A stretch of 28,507 bases of DNA from Planctomycetaceae bacterium (GTDB taxonomy: Bacteria > Planctomycetota > Planctomycetia > Pirellulales > Thermoguttaceae). Both the position numbers and the translations under genes were made by a program. Below, piece by piece: positions 1,896-23,751 of this stretch (within the stretch, counting starts at the first letter, position 1; each line of letters starts with the position of its first letter). The stretch lies in NCBI GenBank assembly GCA_003532715.1, contig DOEZ01000087.1, positions 1-28,507 on the forward strand. Direction: 5' to 3'. The notes below the pieces were generated by a model. It saw only the letters and a program-made list of their open reading frames with translations, did not search any database and was not told the origin of the DNA.

Positions 1896-3440
1896 TTAGA
1901 TTTCCTCCCAGAGTCCTTCCGTGAAGACGAAATCAACCTCGTCAGTAATTTTCTTCTTGTCGCCCGACCCGGTCTGGTTAACCCAAACGTACTCGAAGTC
2001 GGCCACCCAGAGGCGGAAGTTCAGCTCACCGTTGGACAGATCGGCCCAGGCGTCCTCGCCGTCGCCGATCGATCCGTTCGCGGTGAGCAATTCGCCCAGC
2101 GAGGTGTCGTACAGATAGGCCTCGTCATCGCCACCCTTGCCGTAGGCCTGAACCGTGTCGAACCCGTACGCTCGGAAGGTATTGGCGGCGGTCAGCAGCC
2201 TCGCGTCGGCAGGTCGTCCGATGAACGTATCGACACCTTCGGTCCCGAAGAACCGGACTGTGTCGTTGCCCTGTCCGGCAAACGCCAAGACGTGCTGGAA
2301 GTTGCTCGCCGAGATCTTGAATCCGGCGCCGACGAGCGACATGTCGTTGGGGCTGGCGACCAGGAGATCATCGCCGGCTGAATCGTACAGATTCACGACG
2401 TCCTCGCCTCCGGCGCCGCCCACGGCCCTGGCCGTCGGGAACTTGTCGGCACGCAGGTAGAAATTCGCGCCTCGGAGCAGTGCATACGTCGGATCGGCTT
2501 CGAAGGTATCCGAGTCCGTCGAATCGTAGAACTCGGCGTCGTCGCCGGCGTGGGATGAGCCGATGGCGGCCACGTACCGGAATCCGTTGACCGTGACCTG
2601 GTACAACGCGTTCGCCTTGTCCTTCAACTGGGCGTAGTGGGGATAGCCGGTGAACTTATCGGCTCCGGCCGAATCGTACAGGTTGGCGTAATCGGGCCCA
2701 CCGTTTTCGGAATTCGCCTCGACGTAGCGGAAGCCGTTTGCCTCCACGTAATAGTCGCTTCCCAAGGTTGGCTCGATGCGGGCCTGGGTTGGCGTGGACC
2801 GGAACGTGTCGCTTTCGTTCGAATCGTAGAAGTAGGCGCGATCCGCAAGGATGGGATCGCCGGCGGCGTATCCCTCGCCGTAAGCGCGGGTTGTGTGGAA
2901 TCCCTCGGCGGCGACGACTTCGCCTCCGCCGGTGGTCATGCTGCCGAACTTCGGCCGGCCGACGAACGTATCGTTGCCGGTCGAGCCTCGGAGCACGGCC
3001 GTATCGGATCCGCCGGTTCCGGCGACGGCCAAGACCTGGTTGAAATCGGTGGCTTCGAGCGAATAGCCGGACCCGGTCATCGTGGCCAACCCGGGTCTTC
3101 CCTCGAACGCATCGTCGCCGGCGGCGCCGCGCATCGTGACGTCGTCGTTGCCACCGCCGGCGGCTGCTCGCATCACTTCGACATTGATGGTGTTGACGAG
3201 GTAACCGCCGCCGTGCGGACCCTGGAAGGTGGCCTTGTTGCTCCACATTTCGACGGACTCGTCGGCGGTGGAACCGTGGAAGATCACGGTATCGGTTCCG
3301 GCGCCGCCGTCGTACGCGATGGTATCGACCTCGGTGGCCAGATAGTTGTACGCAGCGCCGTTGATGATGACGGTGAGGGTTTCGCCGGCGAAGAACTCGA
3401 AGAGGTCGTCGCCGTCAGTGCCCGACACCTGGACCTCGCG
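1896..3440 (-). repeat. C-terminal block of 9 approx. 45-aa RTX-derived repeats (GGxDxAxLYDSxGxDxF...GFxxVxA) plus terminal motif EVDFVFTEGLW
   Basis: Repeats read directly from the translation; the same block ends the neighbouring giant protein. Confidence 0.8.
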
Positions 3441-6400
3441 GTTGACGATTGGGGGTCGCGACACGATGGCGACCGTGTAGTCTTCGACTTCGCCGTTATC
3501 GGCCTGACCCGTGTAGGAAAGTCCGCCGATCGTGCTGAAGCGGAATCGGGCATAGGAGTCCCCGACGACCGCTCCGGCGGGCACCTGGAAGTGCAGGGTG
3601 TTCGCGCCGGGCTCGACGAATGCGGCGTCGAAAAGGTGCTCGCCCGCGTCGTCCCAATCGCCGTCGCGATTGAAGTCGAGCCATGCGTCGATATAGCCGT
3701 ATGTCGAGGCCGTGACGGTGACCGAGGCCACGGTGCCTTGGGCAATCGCCGTGTTGAACACGACGCCTTGCTCGTCGTTCGAGAGGTTTCGATTATCGCC
3801 GTCGGCCGCGGCGGTGGGCTGGCCGTTGGGTTCCGCGTCGATATGGGCCGACTGCGGGCCGGCCGGGTCGCCCAGGTAGACGCCCGGCACGATGCGGTGC
3901 CGCGCGCCGTTGTCGACCAGGAGCGTCGGATAGGGCGCGGGCGCGTCGCCAAGATCGAGCACGCCGTCGTCGTTGAGGATCGAGACGACCGCCTGGTCCT
4001 TTCCATCGCGGATGGCGACGATATCGTCGTCGACCTCGATGGCCAACACGAAGTACTCGTCGAGTTCGTATTTCTGATCGCCCACGACGCGCAGGGTAAT
4101 CGTCTGGCTTGCGACCGGCTGGTTCTTGAGTCCGATGACGATGTCGTAATTGGATCCGTGCGCGGCGCGCCAAACCAATAGCGAATCGGAGACGGCCGGC
4201 TTCCATTCAGCGCCGGGCGTGTTCGTCACGTTGACGGAGCCCGTTCCGAGATTCAGGTCGTAGTAGTAAACGTCGTAGGTTGATCCGTTGAAGGCTCTCC
4301 AGACGACCTGGTTGCCTTGGATGCGAGGCTCTTCCTCGGAGAACATCGACGTGCTGGAGATGTTCCTCGGCGCGGTCTGGGCGATCGCGTTGTAATGATA
4401 GATCTCCCAGTTGCTTCCCGTGTTGCCTCGCCACACGATGTCGTTACCCGAAATGTCCGGGTAGCGATCGTGGGTCGAGTTGGTCGTGACGCGCGTGGTG
4501 GCTTCGGTCTCCATGTCGTACAGGAAGATTTCGTAATTGGTCGAGCTGACCTGCGATTCCCAGACGATCTTCTCGCCGTCGATGCGAGGCCACTGATCGA
4601 CGCGGCTGTTGCTGGTCACCTGGATGACTTCGGGCGCGTCGAGCGGGTTGACGTCGCCGTAGTAGGCCATGATCTCGGTGTCCGAAGCTCCGGACCCCCT
4701 GGTCCAGACGATGTTGCGACCGGATATCTGGGGATTCCGATCGTCGAGCGTGTTGTCGGTGAGATTGACCGGATTCGCGCCCGGATCGCCCAGGTTGGCG
4801 ATCTCGAAGACGAAGACCTGGTTGCTTCGGCCGTCGTTGCCCCACCACGTGATCAACGAGTCGGAGACGCGAGGATCGCGGTCGCTGTACGAGTTGTCGG
4901 TGACCTGGCGGGTGGTCGCGACGCCGTTGTTGAGCGAATAGGCGAAGACTTCGTCGTCATTTCCGTCGTTGCCGACCCAGACCACGTTGACGCCCGTCTG
5001 CGTGACGCAGACGTGGGGGACGCGATCGTTCGTGGTGTTGTCGGTCAATTGGATCACGTCGAACGTTCCGCGGCTGACGTCAACGGTGGCGAGGAAGATC
5101 TCCCAGTCGTTGCCGTCGAAGCCCTCCCAAACCACATAGTTGCCCGACACGCCAAAATCGTAGTCGCTCGTCGAGGTCGTGGTCAGAACGCGCGTATCCC
5201 AGGTCGGCGGCGGGGTTTCGCGCGGATCGATGGTTACCTTTCCGGACGCCGCGATGTAATCGCCGTCCTGCGTCGTGGCGGTTCCGTCGATGGTGTGATA
5301 TTGCACCTCGACCGGCGCACCAAAGGAATCGGTCAACGTGAGGGTTACCTGAACTTCGGTGTAGCCCTGGTGTCCTTCCACGACCCAAATGTCACTGACC
5401 GCGACGGACGGCTTGCGGTAGCTGCCGAAATTGGCGCCGTCGAGCGTCTCGTTCGCCTCGAGGAAGATGTCGTAGGAATGATCGGCGTTGCCGTGCGAGC
5501 CGTCGACGAACCAGACCATCTCGTCCGGATAGGTCAAGACCCAATCTTGGAGCGTCTCGTCGACAACCCGAACGACGTACTTCTCGGTTCGCCCGATCAA
5601 GCCGTCGAATTCGTAATAGCCGGTCTCGTTGACGTCGGTCGTGGAGAGATCGTCGGTCATGCTGACGACGTACGGCTCGACGGGCACTCCGTAGACATCC
5701 TTGTCCAAGATGCCGTTTTCGTTCATGTCGATGTAGACGGTCACGCCGGAGATGCCCTTTTCGTTGCCGTCGAATCGGCCGTTGTTGTTGCGGTCCTCGA
5801 AGATCCAGCCGTTGATTGCCGCCGATCCGCGGGCCATAACGACCTGGTAGTCCTCGACCTCGCCGTCGCGCGCCGCGCCGCCGTAGCTCACGTCTTGCTG
5901 CGTGCTCAGGCGGAATCGCGCGAAGGTGGTTCCCGCCGAAACGGTCATGGGAATCGTGACGGGAATGGTCTGGAGTCCGTCGACGACCGAGACGTCGAAC
6001 AAGACCTGCTCTTCGGCGGTGAAGACGCCGTCGACATTCAAATCGATCCAGGCGCTCAGGTAGGCCGCGGTCGCGTCGCCCATGTGGACTTCGACGGTGA
6101 TATTGGTCTGCTGTCCGGCCATGAATTGTTCGGGCAGCGTGATGCCGTCTTCATCGTCCAGATCGTTTTTGTCGTCGCCGAGCGCTTCGTGGTCGGGTTG
6201 TCCGTCGAGTTCGGCGTCGACGAGCGTGCCCAGGTAGAGTCGCCTGGCGCCTTGGCCGGGAGCGGGCCACAGCACGTGATAGGCCGCGTCTTCGCCCGAT
6301 CCATCCTGGCCGTGCGCGGTGACGCCGACCGTGCCCACCGAGCCGATCAGGCCCGAGCCATCGTTGTCCCGGTCGACCAGGTCGCTCAATTCAGCCTTGA

Positions 6401-9400
6401 AGAGAGCCGCCTGCTGGGTATTGATAGCCGCGACGACAGCCGCGGCGGTCGTTCGCAACGGATCGACGTCGATCAGGAGCACCTTGGTGGTCGCGTTGTA
6501 GGTGACGAACGCGATGTCGCCGACGGCCCGATCGTTGACAATGTTGATCTTGACTTCGTTCATTTCGGCGCCGGGGGTCACGGCCGTGATCAACATGTCG
6601 TTGTCGTACCCGGGGAGGATCAGTTGGGCGAAGGCCGCCTCGGACTTCTCGACCGTCGAATAGGAACGAGGCGCATCGCCGTAGTCGCGTGGTTCGGCGG
6701 CGATGATCACTTTGTAGTCCTCGACCTCGCCGTCGGACGCGGCGCCGGTCGGCTCGAGCGACACGTCGCTGCTGAGCCGGAATCGAGCGAACGTATGGCC
6801 GACCATCGTCCCGTCGGCCGTCGACGGCACGGTGAACACGACCGTGTTCGCGCCGGCCGTCAAGGGCTTCGAGTCGGCGATTTTCTCGTCGGGACTCCAA
6901 ACCCCGTCGCCGTCGAAGTCGATCCACGCATTGAGGTCTCCGCCGCTCATCGAGGCGGTCACCTGCAAGCTAGCGAGTTGGCCGGGAATGAGCCAGTCGG
7001 TGAAGACCACGCCATCCTCGTCGTTGAAAACCACGGGTTCCGGACCCGAGTCGTCGATGGGACCGTTCTTGTCGTCGCCCCTGGCGTCCGCATCGGGTTG
7101 GCCGTCGAGTTCATCGTCGGCGCGGCCGCCGAGGAAGAGCCCGCCGCCCAGTTCGTGGCGCGCGCCGTCGTCGGCCAACAGGGTTGGATAGGGGGCGGGA
7201 GCGTCGCCGTAGTCGCGCAGCACGTCGACGATCGCGACCTTGTAGTCTTCCACCTCGCCGTTGATCGCCAAGCCGGTCGGACCGACGGCGGGACCGATGC
7301 TCGTGCTGGTGAAGCGGAATCGAGCGAGCGTATCGCCGATGTATTGGCCGGCGGGCAAGACGAAGCTGACGTTGTTCACGCCGCGCGCGACCGTCCGTGC
7401 GAGGACGTGCTCGCCGGCGTCGTCGAAGTCGCCGTCGCCGTTGAGATCGATCCAGGCGTTGAGATAACCGGCTCGCGACGCCCTCACTTGGAGCGTGACG
7501 ACGGATTCCATGAGCAACGCCGAGGTGAACGACACGCCATCGTCCATCTGGTCGCCCGTCGCGTCGTTGATCGGATTGCCTCGATGGTCGACGGCCTGAT
7601 TGGCGTCGGCCTCGCCGGTGACTCCATAGCCCAGGTAGTAGTCGCCGATCAGCAGATGTCGGGCGCCGTCGTTTTCGAGCTTGGTCGGATAGATCGGATC
7701 GGGCGCATCACCGAAATCGACATGCGTCAGCGCCACGACATACGTGGCGGTGCCGTCCAACTGGTTGGCCTGCAACGGACTGCCAGCGACGTCCATGATG
7801 CCGTCGGGCCCGTTGTCGAGGACGATGGTGTAGGCGTTTCCGTGTTCCCACAGGCCCGCGGCGGCGATCAGGCTGATCACATCGTTTGCCGCGTCGTAGC
7901 GGAAGAAGTAATCGACGCCGGCGACCAGCGGTTCCACGCGGCCGCTGACGTACACGTGGACCTTGCTCGATTTGACCGAGTAGTCGTAAATCCCCGCGCC
8001 GGAGAGACCGTCGTTCAACTGGATCGAAATGACGGGGGTCGGCTGGCCGATGACGAACACCTGATCGAGAGCCGGGTTGAGATCGTTGCCAGCCGCGTCG
8101 TTATCCAGAGGATCGATGATCATCGCGGTCGGCGGATCGAAATCGACGCGATCGATCGCGCCTCGGTCCTTGAAGACGTTGGAGCCCGAGCCGGAAGGCG
8201 GCTGCGCCGACGGGTCGTCGACGCGCTGCTGGCCGTAGAGGTCGTAGTCCGGGGCAAGAATCGGGGATCGCGCGATTCCCAGCGGGTCGCGGACCTCGGC
8301 CATGGCGACGCGATCTTCGAGCGAATTGACCGCGCTGTCGATGGCCTTGCTGCCGGCGGCCAGGTAGAAGTTGCCGGTGTCCGCATCGACGAATAGTGGA
8401 TCGTTCGGGCCGAGGATAACGGCCGTGGCCGATTCGACGGCGCCGACCGCGTTGAGTCCGTTGCGCTGATACACATTAGCGCCGAGCACGGTGGTGCGCG
8501 ACGTTCCGTCGACGAATATGCCGACGTCGGTGTTGGCGACGATGTTATTGAGAATCGTCGGGCTGGCGTTGTTGACGACGAGGATGCCCGTGTCGGAAGA
8601 CGCCTCGATCGGGATTCCGGCCTCGCCCGACAGACGCCACACGTACGTGCCCGGATCCATCAGATCGGTCAGATCGGCGGCACTCTTCGGTCGCATCACG
8701 CTGATGAAGTTCTCGTAGTCGCCGGCATCGAAACCGACCTGGGCGCCCGCGCCGCCGAAGCCGCTTCCCCACTCGTCCGAATCGATGTCGCCGGTGGTCC
8801 ATTGCATGTCGTGGTAGACGAAGACCACGATGTCGCCGAGCGGATCGTCTTCGATATAGAGGGTGAACGTGTTCAGCTTGTCGGCGTTCGACGCGAAATA
8901 GCCCACGCCGACCCAGTCGATCTGGACGACGGCATTGCCTCGGGCGCTAGTGCCATAGGCCACGCGGACCTCGCCCGCGCCGCGCGTGTCGACGTCGCCC
9001 CAGAAGGGCGCGATGATCGGCATGTCCTGCGGAAAGCCCTCGGGCGTGAAGTCGTACAACGGGTAATCGAACGTTATGTTTCCGTTGTTGTTCACGTACA
9101 TCTGGGTGTACGCATTGCCGTAGAAGTTCAATTCGAAGCCGATGTCGAGCAGGGAGCTCGACTCGTCGTCATTCGGCGGCATCACGACGTCGCCCGGCTC
9201 GATTAGACTGATCATCGCATCGACGCCGTTTCCGTAGACCGTGTTGTTGACGATCTTTCCGAACGGCGTGGCCGCCATGGCGCCCTGGTTGTTCGGATCG
9301 CCGCTGAACAGGATGCCGGCGACGCCGCTGTGAACGATCAGGTTGTTCTGGATCGTCACGCCGGGAACGAGTTTCTGGTCGTTGACCTTGACCAACGGAG

Positions 9401-12400
9401 CGACTGATCCGGGATGGGGGTATCCGTCGCGCTCGCCCGCATCGTACCGAATACCGTACGCGGCAGCGTGAAGAATCTCATTGGCGCTGATGACGATCTG
9501 GCCCTGGCCCTGTTCGTTGTTCTCATCGCCCTTCAACTGGCGATAGAGGGGCTGGCCGGTCGTGTAGGTCATGGGAATTTCATAACCGAGAGTGGACGGG
9601 AGCACGGTCGCCTGGTGCGAGAAGTAGTCGGACGTGATGATGTCGAGCACCCCGTCGCCGTCCCAGTCGCCCAGCACCACGCCGCTTGGTCCGGCGCCGA
9701 CGGCGTAGGTACTCGAGGGACGAAGCGTGTTCTCGTCGAATCCCGTGCCAGTGAGCACCCTGACCGAGCCTGTCGAATAGTTGGCCACGACGACATCCAG
9801 GTTGTCGTCTTGATTGAAGTAGCCAACGGTAAGGGCCACGGGTTCGGTGCCGGCGACGTAGTCGGCTCTTTCTTCGAACGTGCCGTCGCCGTTGCCGATC
9901 AGGAGCGACACGGTGCCGTCGGCCCGGTTGACCGTCAGGATATCGAGCGCGCCGTCGTTGTCCATGTCGGCCAATTTGACGTCGACCGGCAAACGGCCGA
10001 CGAGATACTCGACGGGCGTCGCGTAATCCGTATCGCCGACGCTCAAGAGGACCGACACGGTATAGTCGAGCGAGTTGGCCACGACGATATCGCCGAATCC
10101 GTCGCCGTTGAGGTCTTCCACCGCGACGCTCGCCGGCGCGTCGCCGACGGCCACGTTCACGGCGGTTCGGAACGTGCCGTCGCCGTTGCCGTAAAGGATC
10201 GAAACCGTGTTGTCGTCAAGGTTCGCCGTGACGATATCCGGATTCCCATCGCCGTCCAGATCGAAGAGGGTCACGTCACTGGGTTCAGTTCCCACGGCGA
10301 AGGTCATCTGGCTCTTGTAGGAGCCATCGGTATTACCCAGAAGGACCGACACGGTGCCGTCGCCGGCGTTCGCGACGACAATGTCATGAACGCCGTCGCC
10401 GTTCACGTCGGCCATGTCGAGGGCCGAGGGCCGGCTTCCGACCTCGTAGACCGCTGGACCCGGAAGGACCGAAATGGTTCCCTTGTATTCGTTCGTGGTG
10501 ACCATCAGGTCGACAAAACCGTCGCCGTTCAGGTCGGGCGCGACGATGTCGGTGGGGTACTCGCCGAGTTGGTCGTAGACCGTGTACTCGATGCCCGTTA
10601 CGACCGCGGCGCCGCTGAGCACGACGCGATCGCTGCCGACGCGAGAGGAGAAGGCGACGTTTGAAGCGGTCACATTGAGGTTCGTCGCCGAATTGATGGC
10701 GGAAGTGATGGACTGAGCGATCTGATCGGCTCGCCGCCCGGCGAAGAAGAAGATGTCGATAACACCATCTTCCTGGCTGAACGGCAGGAGCGGATTGACG
10801 AAGCGGAAGGTCTGGGTGTTCACGCCGTCGCTGACGGTGAACTTGGCGAGGTGAACCAGGTCCTCGGACGGGGAGGCGAGAATCGTGATGTCTTCCGTGT
10901 GGCGGTCGTTCGTGTCGAAGCTGCGGGTATTGGCGGTGATGTTGAACATCGTGTTCCAATACGAGTACTCGGTGGACACGCGGATTTCGAGCTGGTAATG
11001 GCCCTCGGTGACGTAACCGGAGATTTCACTCGGGTCAACCTGTCCGAAGGACGTATCGGGCGCGGCGTGCGAAATCATCTCGCCCCGTTCGATGAAGCCG
11101 ATCGCGACGTTGTCGATGTACCAGCCCTCGTAGGCGTTGTCTTGCGCCTGGGTATTGTAGTAGAACTGCGTGCCGTTGGCCCCCGGCGAGGTCGCGCGGG
11201 GTGTTTCGCCCGGCAGCCCGTCGCTGTATTTGAGTTTGCCCGGGTCCGCCACGCCGTGCTTCAGCAAGTACATGACACTCTGGTCGATTTTGAGCGACGT
11301 GAACAGTTCGGGATTCTCCGCCGTGCCCGTGTCCTCGCCGCCGTAGAACTCGGCGTAGAAAGCATCGACCACGCGGCCAATCTGATAGGCCACCGCATTG
11401 GCCCTTAAGAAGCCGTCAACGGGCACCAGCACGGGCACGATTTCGGGATCGTCATTGTTGACCATGCCCGGCGCGTTGCCCTCGATCTCGATCGACGACA
11501 AGAAGCTCTGGCTCACGTTCATCGCCCCGCGCCACGTAATGGGCAGCGTCGGAATTCCGGACAAATCGGTGGCGAGCCTGCACAGGTAGACGCGATCGCC
11601 GGCCACGACCGACACCGTGTCTTCGTAGAACGTGTTGAACGCGATGCTGATCGCTTGGGCGACGACGCTGGTCGAATCGACGTCGCTGATCTGAATCGGC
11701 GTGTTGCCGTCGGTCACCTGGCCGTCCTTGTCGAACTCGAAGGTGACGGTTCGACCCTGATCGTCGGTGATCGTGAGCGTTTCGCCGTCTCGAATGGCAC
11801 TGCCGGCCGAAGCGGGCAAACGCAACGAGTAGCCCATGTCGAACTCGAAGAGCTGCGGAACGCCCACCATGCTCAGGTCCGACATAAGCGTGAACGTGTC
11901 GCCGTCGACCAGTTCATTGCCGGGCACCGCGATCAGCGGAACGCCGGTGTACAGGTTTTCCCCCGGATTGCCGTTGACGTTCGTGCTGCCGCCTGTCGTG
12001 AATTCGAACTTGAGCCGCAGATTGTCGAGCCCCACGTATCCGCTCAGGTTGACCTTCGCCTGCAGCCACACGCCACCGCCGTCGACCATGTAGACCGGTG
12101 GAGGGATTTTGTCGTCAGACGTTGACATGACGTCGTTGGGCGTGTCGATGTTAGTCGCCAGAAGCTCCCAAGTCACCCCGTCGTTCGAGATGTACACGCG
12201 AGCCGAATCGGTGACGACGTTCGACTCGGTTGCACCGTCCGTTTCGAGGAAGTAGTCGAAGTAAAGGAACGGAAGGTCCTGGGCCTGATAGCCCGCCAGG
12301 CTGAACGTATTCGTCGTCAACGAGCCCTTGGCGCCGCCGGGCAAGTCGTACGTTCCGATCACGCCGGCGTTGTCGTCAAGATAGGCTTGCGTGTCGGGGT

Positions 12401-15400
12401 GTTGGAACGTGCCCGACCGTTCAAGCCCAAACCAATAGCTGTAATTGCCGTAACCGGAGTCGAGCGAGCCTTGCTGCATCGGTTGGCGCGACTCGTCGGG
12501 GGCGACGGTAATCGTGTGCCCCTCGTCCGTCCTCCGATTCTGCGTGATGTGCCACAGATTGTAGTCGAGCGTCGAGAACGCGACGCCCGTCGCTCCAACG
12601 ATCGGGTTCACGAAGCCGGACATGGCATCCGTGACGCCCAGGGTAATGGTGGAGAGCCCGTCGAGAAAGACCGGCGAGGGAACGCCGGTGACGTCGAAGG
12701 CGTAGAACCCGCCGGTCTTGTCCGTGGCAAACAGCGTCTTGGCGTACGCGCCACCCTCGACGTTGGTCGGGCCATCGGTCATGCCGGAAAACTCGATGAG
12801 CGGCTGTTCGAACGCCGCATTGAGGTCGTATACCTCCGCCTCGGCCAGGTCGATTCGGAAATTGTCCGCATCCCACATCGGCGCTATTTCATTCCCGTCT
12901 TCGTCCTCGGTTTTAACCTCCGCGCCCCGCGGCGCGCTCGCATAGCCGTCGATGACGTACAACAATCCCGCGTCGGTCACCCCGTAGAGCGTTCCGTCGA
13001 TGAAGCCGAGACCCGTGATGAAGCCCTGGGCATTCTCGAGGATTCGCCATGGACAAATCGCGGTCGGCAGTGCCTCCTCCGAGCCGCCGGGCGAAACGGA
13101 GTTTCCGTACTGATCGAACTTGAACAACCACTGCTCGGACGAGTCGCCGCCGCCGCCCATCGCGTACATATACCGGGCTCCCCCTTCGACCACGTCGAGC
13201 ATGGCCCGGAACGTCACGCCCGGGTTGTTGGGGTCGATCCCAATGGCGTTGGGGTCGTCCACTGTCGGCGCCGGAATATAGACTTCGATGCTCGCGTCGT
13301 TGTCATAGCTGATCGAACCGTCGGCGACCGAAATCTGGCGGTAGTTCCCGCCCGTGCCCGCCGCGTTGAGCGTCATCGTGTACAGCTTCCCGTCGTTCCG
13401 CACGACGATGTCGTTGTAGCTCATTCCCCCAACCGCATCGTCCAAGAGAGCATTCGCGTCCGGATTGTGCGGCTGCGAACTGCCCGCCGTGAAGTCGTAG
13501 TGGTATTCGCCCGTGAACGGATTGAACGTATAGACGTCGCTCCCGATGCAGACGTACAGGACGATGTCGCTCAAGTCGAAATCGTTGACGTGGATGCTCA
13601 GTTCGTCGAAAGTCGGGTCGGGGAACAGGATGTCCCGAGGCGAGCCGGCCAGCGCGCCTCCATTGGTGTCGCCGATCATGTCGCCGTTGAGGTCGCCGAT
13701 GGTGTCATCGGCGATTCGGGTGACCGAGTTGACCGGCTCGAACCGCAGATGCGGCTGAATCGGCACGCCCGTCTCCACGTACATTCCGTACGCCGCCCAC
13801 GGCAGCATGGCGACACTGGCGACGGCGACGTAGTAGGTGGATCCGTTCGGGCCGGAGGAATCGCCGTCCTTCAGCGCGATCGGACCAAGGTACGGATCGT
13901 TGGTGCCCGCGCTGCCCCGGGTGAGATCCTGCATTCCGGTAACGCCCAACGGATCGGTCTGGTCGTCGCCGACGTTCGAGTTGTGGCTAATGTACATCAG
14001 CGTGCCCGAACTATCGAAGACGTAGAAGATGGTGTCGGGCCGGCCCATGCCGTCGGCGTAGTCGATGTCGAAGATGACGTTCCAGATGTTGGGCTGAGCG
14101 ACGCCCGAGATGTTCTGCGTTCCCGTCGGCGCGAGCGAGAACGAATACCAGTCGATATCGTACTGCGTTTCGCCGCTGATGGAGTTCACGGTGTTGGTGA
14201 GGTAGCCGCTCACCTTGATGGCGCCGTAGTTGGTTTCGAGCAGATTGCCCAGGTGCTCGGCCGTTTCGAACGTGTTGTTGTCGGTGATGCCCGAGGTGGG
14301 GTTGATTCCGCCGGAGGTCAAGCCCAACTGGGTGTTCAGCGGGCGGATAAGTCCAGAGCCGTTGTTCGCTCCGCCGTCGTTGGCCGTCAGGGCGGCGGTG
14401 AAGGTTCCCTCGGCGTTGATCGCCGCGACAGCCGTAGCCGCCGTGGTGGCCTCCGGATCGCCCAGAATGAAGAGGACCTTGATGATCGTGCCGCCGTTGT
14501 CGAAGGCCGGGTTATAGAACACATCGGCGACGTTTCCGGTCTGGCCGCCGTTGACGAACACGATCCAGACGTTGTTGAAGGCGACGCCCGGCACGGCCGC
14601 GGTCACGGTGAAGTCGTTGAAATTGCCGTCGACGCGGACGGGGGCCGATGCCCGAACGCCCTCGGTTGTCTGGACGGTTCCCTCGATTTCCGAGGTGTCG
14701 GTCACCAGGGGCGAACTGGTCGGTAGTCCGAGCAATTCGATGCCGCTAGTCGCGTACCGGATGCTCGAAATCTGGACGGTGGAACCCGCGATTTCCTGGT
14801 CTTCGCGGATCCGGACCTGGAGTTGATACGCTCCGCTGCTGTCGCCCTGGCCGTCGGCCGTATTGTCGGCGCTGCGAACGCGGACGTAGTACAACGACAG
14901 CGAACCGGTAACGCCTGGCAGAACGAGACGCATTCCGGCGTCGTGGATGTTCGTCGTATACATGTCGCCCGTGCCGCTCCATGCGTCGCGGTCCATGGTT
15001 CGGGCGAGGCCCTCGGGCGCGATCAGGCCCGCTTCCTCGGCGGTCGAGCTTCGGCTCGAGGCCAGCACGTTGCCATTTGCGTCGATCAGTTCGACGATCG
15101 AGTCGAGCCCCATGGTCGTTCGGTCGATGTCGATCCAGACCTCGGTTCCGGCGCGCCCGGTGAACGAGTAGACGTCGGCGTAGTTCGGATCGTCGCCGGC
15201 GACGAAGCCGTGGACGTCGAACCCAAGACGCAGGTTCTCGTCGCCCGACTTCATGTTGGGAGCGAGGCTGCCCACGAACTGGGCCCAGTCGGGGGTGTCG
15301 TTCGTGTTTCCGCCCGCGTGAGCGGCCTCCTGCTCGAGCACGACCGCGACGTTCCGGTCGTTCACGTAGCGTTCGAGCTTGACGCTTCGCCAGTCGCCGG

Positions 15401-18400
15401 CCAACGGGCTGTTGACGGCGTTGTCGGTGTCGTTCTGCGGGTTCCCCCACGGGTCGCGCCCCGCGCCGATGCTGTCGTCGTACAGCGAGGTCAAGACGAC
15501 TGGATAGCCGGGCGCCCCGACGATTTGCAGGGTGCCGCCGATGCGGTCCTCGATTTCCTGAGTCGTTCCCAGCGCGGTGAAGCCGGCGTTTTCGCCGAGA
15601 AGCTTCACGACAAGGCTCTGGTTCGCGGCGCTTTGCAGTCGCAGGCCGCCGTAGGTATGGAAGTTCGGAACGACGATCTCGTCGTAAAGCACGTGAACGA
15701 TGTCGGTGTCGTCCCATACGGAGTCGATGGAGAGCACCTCGCCACGGACGATCATGCCGTTGACGGCGTTATTCGCGAGCGCGTTGCCGCGGACCAACGG
15801 CCCGTGGTTGTTGGGATACTCGGCGAAGGCATCGAGATACCCGGTGCTCCGTCCCCAATCGGCGACGTAGTCGAATTTCAGGGAGTTGGCGTTGATGCTC
15901 ATCGCCGGAACCGTGTTGTCGCGGATCACGTTGTCGACCACGATCGGTTGGGCGCCGCGGACGAAGATCACCGAGGCGGATGCGGCGGGCCGACCGGCGC
16001 GATCCGACGTGGTGGCTCCCGTGTTCCATGCCAGCGTGCTGTTGGCGAGCCGGACGTTGGCCTGATGGATTTCGACCGGGTTGAACGTGGCGAATCCGCC
16101 CGGAATGCGCGTTTCGCCGCCGGCGTACGTAATCACGGCGTGGTCGATGCTGCCGGACGAGACGGGTCCGAAGAACAGTCCGCCCCAATCGCCCGGCGCG
16201 GCCTGGCGCTCGTTGGGGTCGCGATTTCCGTTGTCGGTGTCGAAGACGCCGCCGATGCCATAGGTATCGTCGTACTTCGAGGTGAAGATGATCGGCAGCG
16301 CGGCGGTTCCTTCGGCCAGAAGCTGGGCGCCGATTTCGGTTTCGATGCGGTTGTAGCCGAGCTTGACGATAATGCCCGGGTCGATCGCCAACCGAGCGTC
16401 GTATCTGGCTGTCAGCGTCTGGCCGTTGGACCCCGGTCCACCGGGCGTTCCGGCGATGAGCAGGTTTTCCTGGACCACGTGGACGATGTCGGTGTCGTCC
16501 CACCGAGCGGATACGGTTAGCTTGTCGAGCGACGCGCCCGCTTCGGTTCGAATGCGCACGAACAGGCCGTTGATGCTGTTGTCGACGATCAGATTGCCGT
16601 TGATGTCGGGACCGACCCGATCGTAGTCGGCCGTGAAGTCCTCTCCCTGGAACTTCGTGTCGGCGAAACTGTTGGGATCGGCCGACATGGCGGCATCGGC
16701 CGAACGAACGATCGTGTTGAACGTGAGCGTCGGCCGCGACTCGACCATGTGAATCGGGTTGTAGGTTTCGCTCACGCCGTTGACCGAAACCAGGCCGCCG
16801 CCGTAGCGGATTTCGGCGTTATTGACGTAGTTGAGGAAAATGCCCTCGTTTTCCAGCACCGTTCGATCGACGACCTGGTAATCGAGATTGTTGCGGAACA
16901 CCAAGCCGCCCCAATCGCCCGGGTTCACCGTCGGATTCAGCACGCTCTGATCGCTCCACGAGCCGAGCGACCGGTCGTAGTACGAGGTGAAGTAGACGTT
17001 TTGCAGGGGCGTGCCCAGCACTTGCAGGGCCCCTTCGCTGTGGTCGACGTTCAGCGACGCGCTGCCGACGATGATGTTGGCGCGGGAGACCTTGAAGACG
17101 GCCCCCGCGTCGACCATGAGCGTCACGCCAAACGGGACGTTCAGGTTCGCGCCGTCCGCGAGCACCTGGTTCGTCTTGGTTCGGCCGACGAGGTACGCCT
17201 GGTCACGGCGAGCCCGGAGGATCGAGATCTCGTCGTCGCCCTGGTTGGCCGTGATGACGTCGTGCCGGCCGTCGCCGTCGATGTCGGCGAGGGTCAAGCC
17301 GGTCGGCGTGTCGCCGACGCCGTAGACGACCTGCGACTCGAAGGCGCCGGTGCCCAGGCCGAACAGGACCGACACCGTGTCGTCGGCATAGTTCGCGGTG
17401 ACCACGTCGGGCGAACCGTCGCCGTCGAGGTCGGCAATGCCAAGACTGCCCGGTTCGGCGCCGGTGGCATATTTTACCTGCGCGGCGAGGCTGCCGGTGC
17501 CCAGACCGAGCAACACGGAAATGTCGTTGTCGTCACGATTGGCCACGACGACGTCGCGATTTCCGTCGCCGTCGAGATCGGCGATCGCCACCGCGCTGGG
17601 ACCGGCGCCGGCGGTGAAGGACACGGGCGTGTTGAAGACGCCCTTGTCGCGGTTGATCAAGACGGCGACCGAATTCGCGCCTTGGTTGGCCGTGACGATG
17701 TCGATGAGGCCGTCGTTGTTCAGGTCGGCCAGCGCCACGCCAGCCGGAGCGGCCCCGGCGCCCAGCGCGTAGCGAACCTGGTCGCGGTACATCACATTCG
17801 GATCGCTCAGCAGAACGCTGACGTCGTTCGAGCCCCGGTTGGTCACGACGATGTCCAGGACTCCGTCGCCGTTGAGGTCGGCCAGTTCGACGTCGGTCGG
17901 CTGGGCACCCGCGAATCGCGTGATCTGTTGGTTAAAGATTCCGCTGCCGTTGTTGAGCAACAGCGATAGCGTGTTGTTGCCCTGGTTGACGACCACGACG
18001 TCGAGATCGCCGTCGTTGTCCAGGTCGGCGAGGTTCACCGCGCCGGGCTTCGCGCCGACGAGGTAGGTAATCGGCGCCCAGTAGGTTCCGTCGCCGATTC
18101 CACGGAGCAACGAGATCGAACCGTCGTTCTCGTTGGTGACGACGATGTCGGCGATGCCGTCGCCGGTCACGTCGCCGACGGCCGTTCCGGCGGGCTTCGC
18201 GCTGACCTCGTAGGTCATCTGGGCGTCGAACGTGCGATCGCGATTGCCGACGATGCGGACGATGTCGCCGGACTTGGCCGCGGCCAGGGCGTCGTCGATG
18301 TCGCGATACGGATTGTCGAGGCTGCCGAGTTGGCCGACGCCGTCGGACGTCTTGTCGACGAAGAGGGTCTTTTCGATTGTCTGTACGTTGAACCAGAAGT

Positions 18401-21400
18401 TGTGGACTCCGCCGGGCACGCCGTCGGCGTCGCCGTCGAAGAGGGTTCCGGTCGCGTCGACCAGGTGGCGGTTCGACTCGACCACCGACGGAACGAACGT
18501 CATTCTCAGGTCGTAATTGCCTTGGGTCGTGCCGCCGAGGCCGCTGCCGGCCACGTCGAGATCGTATTCGGTGTTGCCCGTGCTGGCCACCGTTACGTAA
18601 TAGACACCCGGCTCCAACTCGACTTCGAGGTAGGAGTCCTCACTGTAGAAATCGTCGTTTCGAGCGATAATTCGGCCTTGGGCGTCGTGCAGCGTCACGA
18701 CGCTGTCGAGCAGACTGAGGCTTTCGAGTCGTTCGGCGGCCGTCTCGGCGCTGAACGTGCCGCTCGTTTCGATTTCGAACCGATAGACGTCGACGTCGAT
18801 ACTGTCGGGCCGGTAGACGTGCAGGCCGTGGATGGTATCGACGTTGCCCGGGAAGAGAGGCTCGACCGAGGCGTCGTAGTACTCGCCGCCGTCGCTGGAG
18901 CCCATGATGGTTCCGACGGGCATGTCGTAGGTGTGGCCGAACCCCAGCAGGTGGCCGATTTCGTGCATGGCCGTCCGAAACCAATTTTGCCCATAGCCGT
19001 CTACCCACGATTCGGCCTGGTCCATGATGGCCACCCCGCCGCCGGCCAATCCGGCGACGCCGCCGGGGCCCGTCGGAATCGTCGGACTGAGGACGCGGAG
19101 ATCGCCCGTCGCGATCGTCAATCCCGTCGCATTGGTTCCGGTGCGTGTGTCCTCGATGAACGTGACGCCCAAGTAGGCGCCGTAGAGTTCGAAGATTTCC
19201 CGGGCGCGCTGTTTTTGCTCGGGCGTGATCAGGTTATACGCGGGACTTCCGTTGGGCAAGGCGCCGTAGACGTTTTTGAAGTTGTAGTAGATGATCGCCG
19301 TGCCATATTGTTTGTCGGCGGCGATGGCGCCAAGGTGCGCCTCGCCGGCGAGCGTCGAGGGAAGCTCGCGATGGCCGAGTTCGCTGATCGCGCCGGGCCA
19401 GTTCAAATCGTAGGGCAACGCCTCGACGGCCGAGGAGATGACGATGCTCTGGCCCTGGGTGGCCGTCCCGAGGACTCCCATGTCGGTCGCCGACGCCAGC
19501 GTGTCGCCCACGACGTAGGCTTCGGTAATCGACGTGGCGATTTCCTGGTATTCGTCGCCGATACGCAGCCGATACGAGCCCGCGCCGAAAGCGGCCAGGT
19601 CGCTGGCGAAGGTCAGCACGACTTTGTTCGCGACCGGGTCGTACACGACCGACGTCGGCTGAATTTCGACGTCGTCCTCGGGTGTGGCCGTCTCGTTGGT
19701 TTGCGACAGGCGATAGAAGTTGGTGTTCTGGGCCGAGGCGACGTTGAGCGTGTCGTCATTGAAGTAGATTTCGATCTGGTCACGATGCTGCTGGAGATTT
19801 CCGGCGGCGTCGCGATAGGTCGGTTGGGGCACGACCGAAACGACTTGGGCGCCCAGGTCGAGCGTGAACGTGATGCTCAGATCCTCTCCCTGATGGAAGA
19901 TGCCGCCATCGACGTTCTTCAGCACGACGTCGCCCTCGCCCCCGGCGCCGACGATCGTAATCATGTACATGTCGTCGGGCAACGTCTCGGCAAAGCGGAC
20001 GATAACTTCGTTCGGACGTTCGCCGATGCCGATCCAACCATAGTCCACGACGACGTCGTTGGCGTTGCCGATCACACGGTCGCCGCCGGCGCGGACGAGT
20101 CGAATCGCGCCGAGCGTGGTCGAGTCGATGACCTGGGACTCGTTGAACTTGAGCGTCAGATCTCTCGGGGCGATATCGAGAATGGTTCCGTTGACGATCG
20201 TTCCGCCCTGATTCGGGACGAGGGCCACCAACTCGGGTCCCACCATCGTCACCGGACCGGGGCCCGGACCGGGCTCTTCTTCCGTCGTGCCAAAAACGTT
20301 CAACTCCCACGAGCGCAACGTGCCCGTCGTGCCCGTGAGCAAATCTCGCACTTCGAGAGTCCATTCGCCTTCGGACGCCTCGCCCCAGTGGCGAGCCGAA
20401 GTGAGTGTCCACTCGTCGAAACTGCCGGACATGTGCCAGAAAGCGACACTACTCGACTCGGCCAGTACGGGCTTCGTTCCATCGGGCGAAACCAGTACGA
20501 TTTCAAGGTCTGCCGGCGACAGATGACCAATGTCAACCGTCACCTCGACCCATTCAATCTTCTCAACCGAGTCATCAAGCGTTACGCTTGAGCGCACGCC
20601 CGTGGAACCGCCATCGGGAATGCCCGCATTAACCATCGTTCTGCCACTGCCCGTCGATATTTCCGCCGAGACGTTTTCCCACTCGAAGGCCAAGTCAACC
20701 GCCGCCGCTGCGTCAACGGCGCCAAAACCGTAGTTATGATTGACGTGGTAGCCCGCGGCATTCTCGGTCCAGTCAGGATTCTCGGGATCGTTCAGGCTGG
20801 CCGTCTCGACCAGAATGTGTTGGACGTCGCGATAGGTCAGCCCGGGATTTGCTTCGAGCATCAAGGCAATGACGCCGGAGACCAGAGGCGCGGCTGACGA
20901 AGTGCCACCGAAAGTGGAAGTGTAGTTGATGTCGGGAAGGAAGTCGCGAGGAAGTTCACCGGTGCCCGTCTCATTGTACCCATCTTCACCCGTTCGATCA
21001 GATGTAACAATACCGTCAACAACATCACTCTGCGAGTCGTACCCCCAACTCGAATGTCCCGATATGAGCAGTGACGCACCCGGATTCGAGTACTCGGCAT
21101 AGGTGCCGTCCGCGCCGATCGCGGCTACCGCAATTGTCTGCCGCAAGCTCGCGAGCACCAGATAGTTTGTGTTTGCCGCATCTTCTCGACTGTTTCCGGC
21201 GGAAAAAACATAGATGCTTCCCAAACCGTCGCGACCGGTTGCCACGCCCGTTTCGATCGCCGCCAACGTGAGCGGTCCCACAGCCTGAAGATAGCCGCCT
21301 GGCCCCCAACTATTGTTGTAAATATCGATCTGTTCGAGTTGATGCAGGAGCGAACTGGACATCTCCACATCGGTCGCAAACCCACCGATCAGGCGAATAC

Positions 21401-22283
21401 CCGCCAATTGAGCCGCTGGCGCGGAACCGCTGACCCCGAGAGAGTTGTTGCCGACAGCGCCAGCCACGCCGGCCACGGCCGTGCCGTGATTGTCCGGCCC
21501 AAAAAAGATGCTGATGCCTGGAGACGGATCATTGTCGCCGTCACGGTAGTCGTAACTGAGATCCGCACGGATATTGTTGACCAAATCAGGATGGTCCATT
21601 TGCAGGCTGTCGTCGACAATCCCGATGATCACGCCAGCTCCGGTAACGCTATCCCACGCGGACACAACGTTGGCATCAACGCCGGGAGTGCCGCCAGTCT
21701 GTCCCGTGTTCTGCAAATGCCACTGTTCGCCGAACAAGGAATCGTTTGGAACCGCCATGGGCACCAACTTCTCGGCGACCAACGGATAATAGTAATCGAT
21801 TCCCTCGGCCGCTTGCAGCGTGTTGGCCACGGTTACCCACGACGTTGTCTCCGGGAACTCCCAAATCGTCGCATTTGACAAAACGGGCGCGTACTGTAGG
21901 AAATCGGCGTTGAGCGAGGCGGCGAGTTGCGGGGCGCAGGTGTCGGCCTTGCTTTCGTTGACGCCGACGACCCATTGATAGGTCGAGGCCAGAAGCTCCT
22001 GGTCGTAGCCCGAAAGATCGGACGCCCTGTAGACGGCGCGCGACAGGTTGTCGCTCAAGTAGTTGTAGTCGGTCATCGGGCAGACGATTTGTTCGAGGTC
22101 GTCGAAGCCCGGGGGCGAGGTGATGCTCAACAGCACTCGCTGCTCGAACGTCTCGACCCGAAGCGAACGGCTTCGAAGAGACCCCAACACATCACGCCGG
22201 CCGGGCCACGCGTTCTTGATCTTGGCCGCACTCTTCGGCCGACCAACTCCGGACCAACGGCGAAACGTATCCCAGATCATCAT
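1896..22283 (-). CDS. Giant extracellular multidomain protein (6795 aa): S8 protease/P-domain, metzincin-like, PPC, beta-helix, FG-GAP x2, NIDO, GEVED x4, SdrD-B, Calx-beta, beta-propeller, C-terminal RTX-like repeats
   Basis: Uninterrupted 20.4-kb ORF, ATG at 22283 with GAGGAG 8 nt upstream, TAA at 1896-1898. Strong GC3 bias in this frame (143/160 in eight sampled lines). Recognisable motifs along its whole length. Confidence 0.95.
   Translation of the reverse strand: [6795 protein letters not shown]
3465..3956 (-). other. GEVED domain 4 ([11 protein letters not shown]...NGEVEDY)
   Basis: DxGDAP start, [24 protein letters not shown] and GEVEDY motifs. Confidence 0.85.
3966..5411 (-). other. 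Calx-beta domain split by an 8-repeat beta-propeller (about 4110-5210; TolB-like or Methanosarcina surface-protein-type repeats)
   Basis: Calx-beta N-half VSDIWVVEG...[11 protein letters not shown]...[16 protein letters not shown]; C-half [11 protein letters not shown]...ELDEYF...VSILNDD. Eight xxLTxN...DxxPxISGxxIVW...EI(F/Y)xY repeats lie between them. Confidence 0.75.
5412..5822 (-). other. SdrD B-like domain
   Basis: [35 protein letters not shown]...TGYYEFDGL...YVVR...NFG pattern. Confidence 0.75.
5835..7718 (-). repeat. Three tandem GEVED domains (7230-7718, 6702-7214, 5835-6686); the third carries an internal insert of about 100 aa
   Basis: Each has D(F/Y)GDAP...ARH/AYH...LG...AWIDxNxDG...ARFR...GEVEDY. 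Confidence 0.85.
8598..9224 (-). other. NIDO (nidogen-like) domain
   Basis: [47 protein letters not shown] and [12 protein letters not shown] are hallmark NIDO motifs. Confidence 0.8.
9534..10571 (-). repeat. FG-GAP/VCBS-type repeat block 2, seven Ca-binding DxxxDGxxD-type repeats
   Basis: [63 protein letters not shown]. Confidence 0.85.
15350..17204 (-). other. Right-handed parallel beta-helix (pectin-lyase-like) region of three related units
   Basis: Three (F/L)TSxYDxxxG...GDW units, repeated NN/N-ladder rungs ([16 protein letters not shown]) and WDDTDIVHV twice. Confidence 0.65.
17205..18236 (-). repeat. FG-GAP/VCBS-type repeat block 1, seven Ca-binding repeats
   Basis: [63 protein letters not shown]. 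Confidence 0.85.
18530..18810 (-). other. PPC (bacterial pre-peptidase C-terminal)-like domain; further PPC-like units near 14810-15190 and 13820-14165
   Basis: DVDVYRFEI...[20 protein letters not shown]...[17 protein letters not shown] pattern. Boundaries are approximate. Confidence 0.65.
18903..18965 (-). other. Metzincin zinc-binding motif [11 protein letters not shown] (aa 1107-1117) with Met-turn (TIMG, M1127); M10/matrixin-like metalloprotease
   Basis: Intact HExxHxxGxxH followed 10 residues later by Met. Confidence 0.8.
20286..20640 (-). other. Proprotein-convertase P-domain
   Basis: [28 protein letters not shown]...[26 protein letters not shown]...[12 protein letters not shown]. Confidence 0.85.
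20679..21749 (-). other. Kexin/furin-like S8 serine protease catalytic domain, triad D224/H266/S462 and oxyanion N364 intact
   Basis: GIVDDS (D at 21612-21614), NHGTAVAG (H at 21486-21488), FSAGN (N at 21192-21194), [34 protein letters not shown] (S at 20898-20900), NHNYGFG. Confidence 0.9.
22125..22169 (-). other. Planctomycete extracellular / LEPRxLL-type N-terminal motif ([15 protein letters not shown], aa 39-53)
   Basis: Variant of RxLxxExLExRxLL after a basic leader with no hydrophobic segment. Confidence 0.75.
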
Positions 22284-22398: not shown

Positions 22399-23751
22399 CT
22401 ACCGGTCTCTCCAATTTCCTTCCATGGCCAGCACGAAATCGAGTTCCGACGCGACGTCCTTCGTGTCGTCGCCGCCTTGCATGGACTTCGCGACAACGCT
22501 CTCGAAACAGCAGGCCCAGTAGTTGAACTGATCGTTCGACAACCGGAGCCAGTTGTCGGCCGCATCGAGATGGTCGGCCATCGCCGAATCGTACAGCACG
22601 GCCTGATCGTATCCGCCGTTCTCCTCGCGTCCGAAGACGTTCACCTGGCGGAAGCCGTGGGCGCGGTTCGAGTAGGCGTTGCTCGACAGTTGAGCGTAAT
22701 TCTGCGCGGTCAACAACGTGTCGTCGCCCGCCGAATCGTACAGCACGGCCAGGTCGTTGCCCTGGCTTCCGTAGCCGGTGACGTAGCGGAACGAATCGAC
22801 TTGGATTTTGTATCCGTCGCCGGAGAGCGCGCCGTAATTCGGACCCGCAACGAAGGTGTCGTCGCCGGCCGAATCGTACAGTTGGGCCGTGTCGGTCCCG
22901 CCCTGGCCATAGGCCAGCACGAACGAGAAGCCGTCGGCACGGCAGTAGAAGCCGTCGCCCTGGAATTGGGCGTAGGTCCGGTCGGCCTTGAACGTGTCGT
23001 TGCCGGCGGAGCCGTACATCTTGGCGGTATCCGCACCGCCGGCGGTCGAGGCGACCACCATCCCGTCGAACCCCTCGGCATAGAGGTAGTACGTCGATTG
23101 GTCGTCGCGCAACTGGACGTAACCGGCCGTCGACTCGAAGCGATCGTTACCGGGCGAGTCGGCGAAGTTAACGGTGTCCAAGCCGCCCGCCGTGGCGAAA
23201 GCCTTGACGTTGTCGAACGACTTGGCGACGATCGTGTAGTCGCCGTCGGTCAACGCGGCCGATTGGTGCGAGGCCGTGAACGCGTCGTCGCCGGCCGCGT
23301 CGTACAGCGTCGCCTGATCGTAGCCACCCGCCTCGGAACGCACTTCGACGGTCTCGAAGGCGTTGGCGGCGAGGCTGAATCCCGCGCCGGTCAGGCCCGT
23401 CTGAGCCTTGCGGCCCGTAAACGTGTCGTCGCCGGCCGAATCATGGAGAAGCGCCGCGTCGTTTCCGCCGCCGCCGCTGGCCGTGATCGATTCGACGTTC
23501 TCGACCGTGACGGTGTAGTCGATGCTCGACAAAACGCCGCGGGTGGGCCACAGCTCGACCGAATCGTCGGCGGCCGACCCGGTGAACACGACCGTATCCG
23601 CGCCGCCGAGTCCGTCGAAGCGGACCGTGGCGGTGGTGCTCGGCACGCTCTGCACGACGCCGTTGAGCTTGACGATCCACGCACCCGGCACCGGGCCGCC
23701 GACGAACTCGAAGACGTCGTTGCCCGAGGTGCCCGTCAGGACCAACTCGGT
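22399..23751 (-). repeat. C-terminal block of 8 approx. 45-aa RTX-derived repeats plus terminal motif ELDFVLAMEGNW
   Basis: GG(Y/T/A/L)[14 protein letters not shown]...GFxxVxA repeats read from the translation. Confidence 0.8.

Follow-up and report, generated by a model that had tools for sequence, protein, structure and literature searches.

Planctomycetes are a phylum rich in giant genes (PMC5177795), and atypical oligonucleotide usage is a known property of giant genes that are rich in repeats (PMC2528017). Horizontally transferred segments of atypical composition ameliorate over time (Lawrence and Ochman 1997, as cited in PMC2528017). Here we analyze a stretch of 28,507 nucleotides from a Planctomycetaceae bacterium (GenBank assembly GCA_003532715.1, contig DOEZ01000087.1), henceforth the window, which carries a giant gene of 20,388 nt (20.4 kb; 1896..22283, minus strand) encoding 6,795 aa. 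Near the 5' end of this gene, the G/C content of third codon positions (GC3) drops over a protease head consisting of a presumed propeptide, a peptidase S8 catalytic domain and a P domain (pro-S8-P unit, or S8+P). A first-pass annotation of the sequence had taken this head for a recently acquired in-frame cassette. We find that the drop is real and that the unit itself is an old module inherited by vertical descent.

The head resembles the kexin/furin-type subtilases (MEROPS S8B, proprotein convertases) in having an S8 domain with aligned Asp, His, Asn and Ser motifs and a P domain directly after it, but it forms the N-terminal part of a multidomain surface protein of 6,795 aa and is not a stand-alone convertase. 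The gene resembles the giant genes described from planctomycetes (Reva and Tummler 2008; PMC5177795) in being longer than 20 kb, repeat-rich and surface-protein-like, and its scaffold, the body of the protein beyond the head, shares the atypical oligonucleotide usage of repeat-rich giant genes. It differs from them in its uneven composition, one module of ~1.6 kb departing from the remainder of the open reading frame (ORF), a departure that is inherited within a clade. Like transferred segments of atypical composition (Lawrence and Ochman 1997, as cited in PMC2528017), this block has a lower GC3 than its surroundings and sharp boundaries; it differs from them in its long residence, judged by distribution, phylogeny and divergence, in its host-typical tetranucleotide usage and in not being coextensive with the insert in which it lies. 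The case is mainly a caution: a sharp intragenic GC3 step at a domain and a linker can be mistaken for a cassette newly gained by horizontal transfer, even where the module dates back as far as the family does.

A kexin-like head and its drop in GC3

The S8 catalytic domain (aa 215-521; 20721..21641, on the minus strand like all features of the giant gene given below) is kexin/furin-like and matches PF00082 with 140.6 bits, the family cut-off being 21.8 bits; a search of the source genome gave the same S8 match as the Pfam search. The motifs IVDDS (aa 222), HGTAVAG (aa 266), SAGNS (aa 361) and GGTSSAAP (aa 459) provide the catalytic Asp, His and Ser as well as the oxyanion Asn in the order typical of subtilases, and all four are invariant in an alignment of nine sequences. 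Kexin and furin are the best PDB matches of the head (E = 2e-64), the Asp, His and Ser motifs aligning with those of kexin 1ot5 and the furin alignment spanning query residues 53-520. The proprotein-convertase P domain (aa 576-662; 20298..20558; PF01483, 73.6 bits) lies directly C-terminal to the catalytic domain. Approximately 160 aa precede the S8 domain, in the position expected of a propeptide; the giant protein matched no Pfam propeptide family at E ≤ 0.001.

Upstream of the unit is a planctomycete-type leader motif, FEQRVLLS (aa 46-53; 22125..22148), of a class that recurs in the orthologues and in 59 ORFs of the source genome. Downstream follow a low-complexity linker, EEEPGPGPGP (aa 668-677; 20253..20282), which is PG-rich in the genus-level clade and shorter or different in the remaining family, and GPELVALVPNQG (20205..20240), which marks the start of the first scaffold domain. 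The string LEVRDLLT at the end of the P domain, considered as a second leader motif, was rejected as a chance match that belongs to the P-domain consensus.

Computation of GC3 bore out the hand count of the first-pass annotation almost to the codon. Third-position G or C was found in 295 of 461 codons (0.640) across 20341-21720, where 293 of 460 had been counted, in 196 of 241 (0.813; earlier 195 of 240) across 19621-20340 and in 142 of 181 (0.785; earlier 141 of 180) across 21721-22260; in the rest of the gene GC3 is 0.836. The codons of the example peptide DVVDGIVTSDR likewise read as they had been quoted. In a free change-point scan, the maximum-likelihood low segment comprises codons 127-648 (20340..21905; log-likelihood ratio 48), and has a GC3 of 0.649; it takes in the remaining propeptide, the whole S8 catalytic domain and the larger part of the P domain. 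The 2-unit support intervals of its boundaries are codons 115-202 and 614-712, and the PG-rich linker, near which the lower boundary had been placed before, falls within the downstream interval. All eleven of the lowest 100-codon GC3 windows of the 6,795-codon gene lie within codons 101-700 and overlap the low segment. A long antisense shadow ORF on the plus strand (18330..20591 in the ORF list; the last such frame and not a gene) indeed stops at 20591, as had been noted, with the next such frame of 150 aa or more beginning at 21339; this stop is a by-product of composition, because GC3 falls there.

The shift is present within nearly every amino acid, which rules out amino-acid composition as its cause, and consists chiefly in a change from NNC to NNT codons, the third-position C/(C+T) fraction being 0.59 in the low segment versus 0.85 in the scaffold. 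The first 73 codons of the inserted unit (aa 54-126; 21906..22124), which form the start of the presumed propeptide, have a GC3 of 0.877, and of 0.890 in the close relative described below (Fisher p = 5e-5 versus the dip). Because GC3 is 0.88 over aa 54-126, the dip does not fill the insert. Taken together, these measurements confirm that the GC3 dip over the protease head is real.

Codon usage in the source genome

The source genome is a fragmented metagenome-assembled genome (MAG) of 762 contigs and 4.95 Mb with a GC content of 0.616, and it is 70% complete. As background we used windows of 460 codons that passed a filter on G/C content at first and second codon positions only. Their mean GC3 is 0.771 (standard deviation (SD) 0.056), with 2.5% of windows not exceeding 0.64 and 9.6% reaching 0.836 or more; the S8+P segment lies within the lowest ~2.5% of the equal-length coding windows of the genome. 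A cruder background made of longest ORFs, in which the segment fell at the 10th percentile, was rejected as diluted by shadow ORFs, since housekeeping genes came out at a GC3 of 0.84. An unconstrained search of all long ORFs for steps within genes was also left unused; its top matches were over-extended ORFs, as their in-segment GC3 near 0.43, the level of second positions, indicates.

Among the observations that would speak against its reading, the first-pass annotation had named similar dips being common across the genome near the 5' ends of long genes. They are not: across 122 further genes with 900 codons or more, this 5' contrast averages -0.005 (SD 0.061, maximum 0.187). This comparison, along with the high GC3 of aa 54-126, rules out a 5'-end or ramp effect.

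Housekeeping genes (GroEL, ATP synthase subunits, EF-G, RpoB and translational GTPases) range in GC3 from 0.80 to 0.89, with a weighted mean of 0.842 and a C/(C+T) fraction of 0.867. The corresponding values are 0.84 and 0.852 for the scaffold and 0.64 and 0.59 for S8+P. Thus, the scaffold shares the optimal-codon regime of the housekeeping genes while the protease head lies in the low tail of the genome, so that a single 20-kb gene records two codon regimes, one of them matching housekeeping genes. GC outside all ORFs of at least 80 aa, a rough proxy for non-coding DNA, is 0.53, and the GC3 of S8+P is intermediate between this value and the optimised level of 0.84. With respect to tetranucleotides, the head is typical, its distance from the genome profile falling at the 69th percentile, whereas scaffold windows average the 86th and reach the 98th; its profile is nearer to that of the genome than to that of the scaffold. 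No other S8 domain that could drive conversion as a paralogue was found in the source MAG (70% complete), and the edges of the S8+P unit carry short chance repeats only, with no flanking repeats of the mobility type.

Descent of the head

An orthologue of the giant gene is present in MAG GCA_012514295.1 (REL) on two contigs, one with the leader, S8+P and 224 scaffold codons and the other with scaffold aa 914-5526. Amino-acid identity to the window is 0.96 in the leader, 0.881 in S8+P and 0.886 in the scaffold, and the GC3 of these parts in REL is 0.817, 0.693 and 0.841, respectively. A relative whose head is 88% identical hence already carries both the unit and the dip, and both are older than the split between the two lineages, whose depth is ~0.4-0.5 synonymous substitutions per site. 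Divergence at four-fold sites between the window and REL is 0.31 in S8+P, within the scaffold range (mean 0.24, SD 0.067, range 0.09-0.42). The ratio of nonsynonymous to synonymous divergence (dN/dS) is 0.12 in the head versus 0.16 in the scaffold, indicating that the head is not decaying. Because the catalytic motifs are also intact and align with kexin, the pro-S8-P unit is predicted to be a functional kexin-like protease head.

More widely, S8+P homologues of 47-65% identity occur in two of the four other genomes of the same genus and, beyond it, in numerous genera of the family and more than one family of the order, the searched genomes without a match being MAGs that are 65-94% complete. 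The unit occupies the same position in REL, in the two same-genus genomes and in at least eight further genera of the family. Most homologues in relatives sit inside open frames of 4,000-10,000 aa, and the order leader, pro-S8-P, linker and GPELV domain is kept in giants of at least ten genera of the family; the family-level giants are collinear with that of the window in leader, S8+P and scaffold. Across the junction, a conserved W-E-L-N-V-[FY]-G is followed by a variable linker and then by GPELVA..PN.G. Conserved architecture of export leader, kexin-like head and scaffold is thereby recorded for giant Pirellulales proteins.

Identity of S8+P tracks that of the scaffold genome by genome (59/60, 56/58, 55/55 and 51/52), and nine further full-length giants from a large protein database gave 55-65% for S8+P versus 54-70% for the scaffold. 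The S8+P tree follows taxonomy, with the window as sister to the same-genus genome G002 (support 98/97*), the family inside and the order-level sequences outside. In a tree of 62 sequences that includes cyanobacterial and other homologues, the window falls in a clade (support 97*) of family giants only. Outside the family, even the best S8+P matches do not exceed 54% identity, the named homologues are annotated as Pirellulales or Pirellulaceae, and a metagenome scan gave no relatives closer than 60% identity. These results show the pro-S8-P unit to be a module of long standing that was passed on vertically, against the recent acquisition that had been proposed. A vertically inherited S8 unit common to orthologues across the clade is one of the observations that the first-pass annotation itself had named as refuting its reading.

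There is a mild discordance: scaffold trees place the same-genus genome G003 as sister to the window (and to G002), and S8+P trees place it outside the inner clade. Approximately unbiased (AU) tests, which were made post hoc, do not reject scaffold-like groupings with the S8+P data (p = 0.22, 0.10, 0.10 and 0.09), and sliding amino-acid identity against three orthologues shows no clear breakpoint. The misplacement of G003 (L021, G003:C2) concerns the S8 core equivalent to window aa 173-521 and may mean exchange at the level of the module, the AU tests being borderline and post hoc.

As for the insert itself, the first-pass annotation had stated that related giants start with a GPxLxxxxPNxG domain right after an LEPRxLL-type leader, which would make the whole pro-S8-P unit an insert between the two. 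This part of its reading is borne out: in order-level scaffold homologues without S8 the leader abuts the domain, for example at junctions reading LEDRIVLA-SPQLIGINPNVG, LEERMLLA-LGPQLIGIQPNAG and FEQRCLLS-SGPMLLSITANDG. Order-level S8+P homologues, for their part, run into unrelated sequence past the P domain. The insertion is ancient, dating to the family ancestor at the latest. Judging from these junctions, the head is a module that has been joined to differing bodies over deep time, the present fusion being a family-level trait, and modular gain or loss of a kexin-like head is recorded at the level of the order.

Several related giants show further differences in layout. In a family-level giant (L043, G010:C387), ~400 aa of propeller-like sequence replace S8+P before the same first scaffold domain; the N-terminus is not reached in this sequence, and the arrangement resembles one body fitted with another N-terminal cargo. 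In an S8-less giant, the second one of G034:C21 (L050), a P-domain-like sequence, ..DLEVQLDIDHTWGPDLRVFLTGPEGN.., occurs past the first scaffold domains, at ~aa 330-400 of its open frame.

Cyanobacterial proteins (P0039, P0063, P0096 and others, some of them giants of more than 4,000 aa) carry S8+P units that are 45-54% identical to that of the window. This identity nearly equals that of some family-level orthologues, and the cyanobacterial sequences are interleaved with planctomycetes at deep nodes of poor support, a hint that S8+P may have moved between phyla long ago.

Along the alignment of the window with REL (L056/L057), four-fold divergence in 150-codon windows varies from 0.09 to 0.42, exceeding binomial noise, and the lowest value next to the head (0.13) directly adjoins the S8+P segment. 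This unevenness suggests a mosaic recombination history along the gene.

Distribution of the GC3 drop among relatives

To compare proteins, we express the dip as delta, the GC3 of the rest of the frame minus that of S8+P. Delta amounts to 0.19 in the window, 0.15 in REL, 0.11 in G002, 0.10 in G012, 0.065 in G003, 0.06 in G017, 0.056 in G023 and 0.05 in G006, and is about 0 in the outer family clade and in order-level proteins. Tested one by one, the window, REL, G012, G002, G003, G017 and G006 each have a significant dip; in the first four of these, the ends of the low segment and of the P domain lie within ~10 codons of each other. For a further set of 66 S8+P proteins from metagenomes, delta has a mean of 0.007 (SD 0.037, maximum 0.085), ruling out the dip as a general property of S8+P. 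The dip is thus a clade-limited, graded trait that is strongest in the lineage of the window and is not intrinsic to the fold. Synonymous divergence between lineages of the inner clade is saturated, so that their dips must be maintained or regenerated and are no shared relic.

Explanations for the difference in codon usage

With moderate confidence, we regard the segment as part of a kexin-like head that is old and functional but in which, in this lineage, the catalytic and P domains no longer follow the housekeeping-like codon regime, probably owing to weaker effective selection or weaker GC-biased conversion. On this account, a single insertion, no later than the family ancestor, would have placed the pro-S8-P unit between export leader and first scaffold domain, and the dip would be no relic of that insertion. 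It would instead represent a lineage-specific, module-internal departure from the optimisation of C-ending codons. As the cause of the difference in regime between head and scaffold we infer that effective selection (or GC-biased conversion) for optimal codons became weaker across the catalytic and P domains, so that third positions in the head would have drifted partway toward the non-coding composition of the genome. Synonymous divergence (dS) between the window and REL is 1.36 times higher in the head than in the scaffold, as expected from weaker codon constraint. What remains is a modest lineage-specific discontinuity of codon usage in a known kind of protein.

Five points weigh against this explanation. 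Domain-wise selection of codons in one ORF on one transcript would call for a mechanism of its own. A position in the lowest ~2.5% of GC3 values is a stretch for relaxed selection alone. The length of ~1.6 kb and the module-internal boundaries would also fit a recombination tract. Post hoc AU tests with the scaffold data reject S8+P-like groupings (p = 0.0005 and 0.002), the odd taxon being G003 and not the window. Finally, synonymous differences between the window and REL are asymmetric with respect to AT and GC (56 versus 35, p = 0.035), and the segment may therefore not be at equilibrium.

The main rival is an old homologous replacement, in which a tract of ~1.6 kb (codons ~127-648) came from a related Pirellulales lineage with lower GC3 before the split between the window and REL, the dip being its partly ameliorated relic. 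This is a possible but tentative explanation. The tract has a plausible recombination length, its boundaries lie within the module rather than at architectural edges, and relatives with a low-GC3 S8+P exist (0.56-0.58 in G012). Four-fold dS is 0.31 in the tract versus 0.13-0.14 in its immediate flanks, a rough two-state estimate lets an ancestral GC3 of ~0.55 reach 0.65-0.69 today, and the asymmetry between the window and REL points the same way. The slight disagreement between the trees of the S8+P core and the scaffold is also in line with replacement, as is the fact that the advantage of the same-genus G003 over other genomes is gone in aa 173-521. This discordant stretch, however, differs from the dip, and the S8+P data fail to reject the scaffold topology. 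Moreover, the sister relationship of the window to the same-genus G002 in S8+P is expected under vertical descent, and 5.8 billion proteins yielded no donor candidate, the nearest after REL being 65-67% identical, the same as for the scaffold. The smaller dips in six other lineages would, in addition, require several independent events.

A stronger claim would be that, in one Pirellulales clade, the gene contains a heritable codon regime confined to one module of the ORF, the head being kept or selected non-optimal across synonymous saturation while the ~6,100 other codons stay housekeeping-like. We think this unlikely. If true, it would mean that giant genes are controlled at the level of domains, either in translation speed or in recombination and GC-biased conversion.

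Doubtful, too, is selection for slow translation, whereby non-optimal codons in the head would be favoured in this clade, for example because they pace export, pace the folding of the subtilase with the aid of its propeptide, or keep ribosomes from crowding where translation of a 20-kb message begins. In its favour, the dip in the window, REL, G012 and G002 has its edges close, on the scale of a domain, to the pro/S8/P boundaries, the head is under strong purifying selection, and the remaining ORF is optimised like the housekeeping genes. On the other hand, neither the 66 other S8+P proteins nor the outer family clade show a dip, so that the need would not be intrinsic to the fold. Furthermore, dS is raised and not lowered in the segment, which argues against constraint on particular codons, and the first 126 codons are not slow-coded, unlike in a classical ramp. 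If selection did keep the two regimes apart, the gene would provide a natural case of domain-level translation tuning in very long genes.

Recent horizontal gain of a foreign in-frame S8+P cassette, the reading of the first-pass annotation, is highly improbable. Its attraction lies in the extreme GC3 of the segment, in the sharp downstream boundary near the linker and in the unit being a true insert relative to relatives lacking S8. Against it stand the family-wide position and conserved junction of the unit, the presence of unit and dip in REL, the taxonomic order of the S8+P tree, the low identity of matches outside the family, the genome-typical tetranucleotide usage, the absence of flanking repeats and the high GC3 at the head of the insert. 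Equally hard to credit is an artefact of assembly or binning that joined a segment of another population, which a fragmented MAG and conserved domains able to seed chimeric joins might allow: an independent MAG (REL) has the same order and dip on a single contig spanning leader, S8+P and 224 scaffold codons, one metagenome sample yields mismatch-free short contigs of equal depth (2.5-4x) inside (20550-20765 and 20853-21066) and outside the segment, and position 20340 is crossed by a contig of 96% identity that stems from a digester run unrelated to this sample. No sequencing run contained the whole stretch, the runs yielding short low-depth pieces only.

Remaining features of the window

From N- to C-terminus, the giant protein comprises the leader, the pro-S8-P head, the linker, Ig-like domains, a metzincin-like domain, PPC, FG-GAP, beta-helix/NIDO, GEVED and Calx-beta domains and C-terminal repeats, as assigned from the ORF list, the translation and Pfam. 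With a gene of more than 5 kb, an LExRxLL-type leader and extracellular repeat domains (FG-GAP, GEVED, Calx-beta, NIDO and PPC), it has the characteristics of a planctomycete giant surface protein.

The metzincin-like domain represents a second (M10-like, matrixin-like) protease domain and sits in the high-GC3 scaffold. Its zinc motif, HEIGHLLGFGH (18933..18965), is accompanied by a weak match to PF00413 (23.9 bits, cut-off 24). Of three S8-less order-level scaffold homologues, two have a degenerate version of this motif, with ..LRQVGSQLGLGD in L042 (G034:C21) and AMNEIGRLLGLGS in L045 (G029:C239) versus AMHEIGHLLGFGH in the window, and the third, L044 (G038:C83), retains it (AMHEIMHTMGLPH).

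Upstream of the giant gene lies a second giant frame (22399-28506, minus strand) that is ended by the contig edge. It begins within a P domain (PF01483, E = 4.7e-6; 28210-28506) and therefore probably has an S8+P head of its own past the end of the contig; its GC3 is 0.76 in the first 100 codons versus 0.82 in the rest. Downstream of the giant gene, the ORF at 141-1460 (minus strand) matches the BBP7 family of putative beta-barrel porins (PF07585, E = 6.6e-13).

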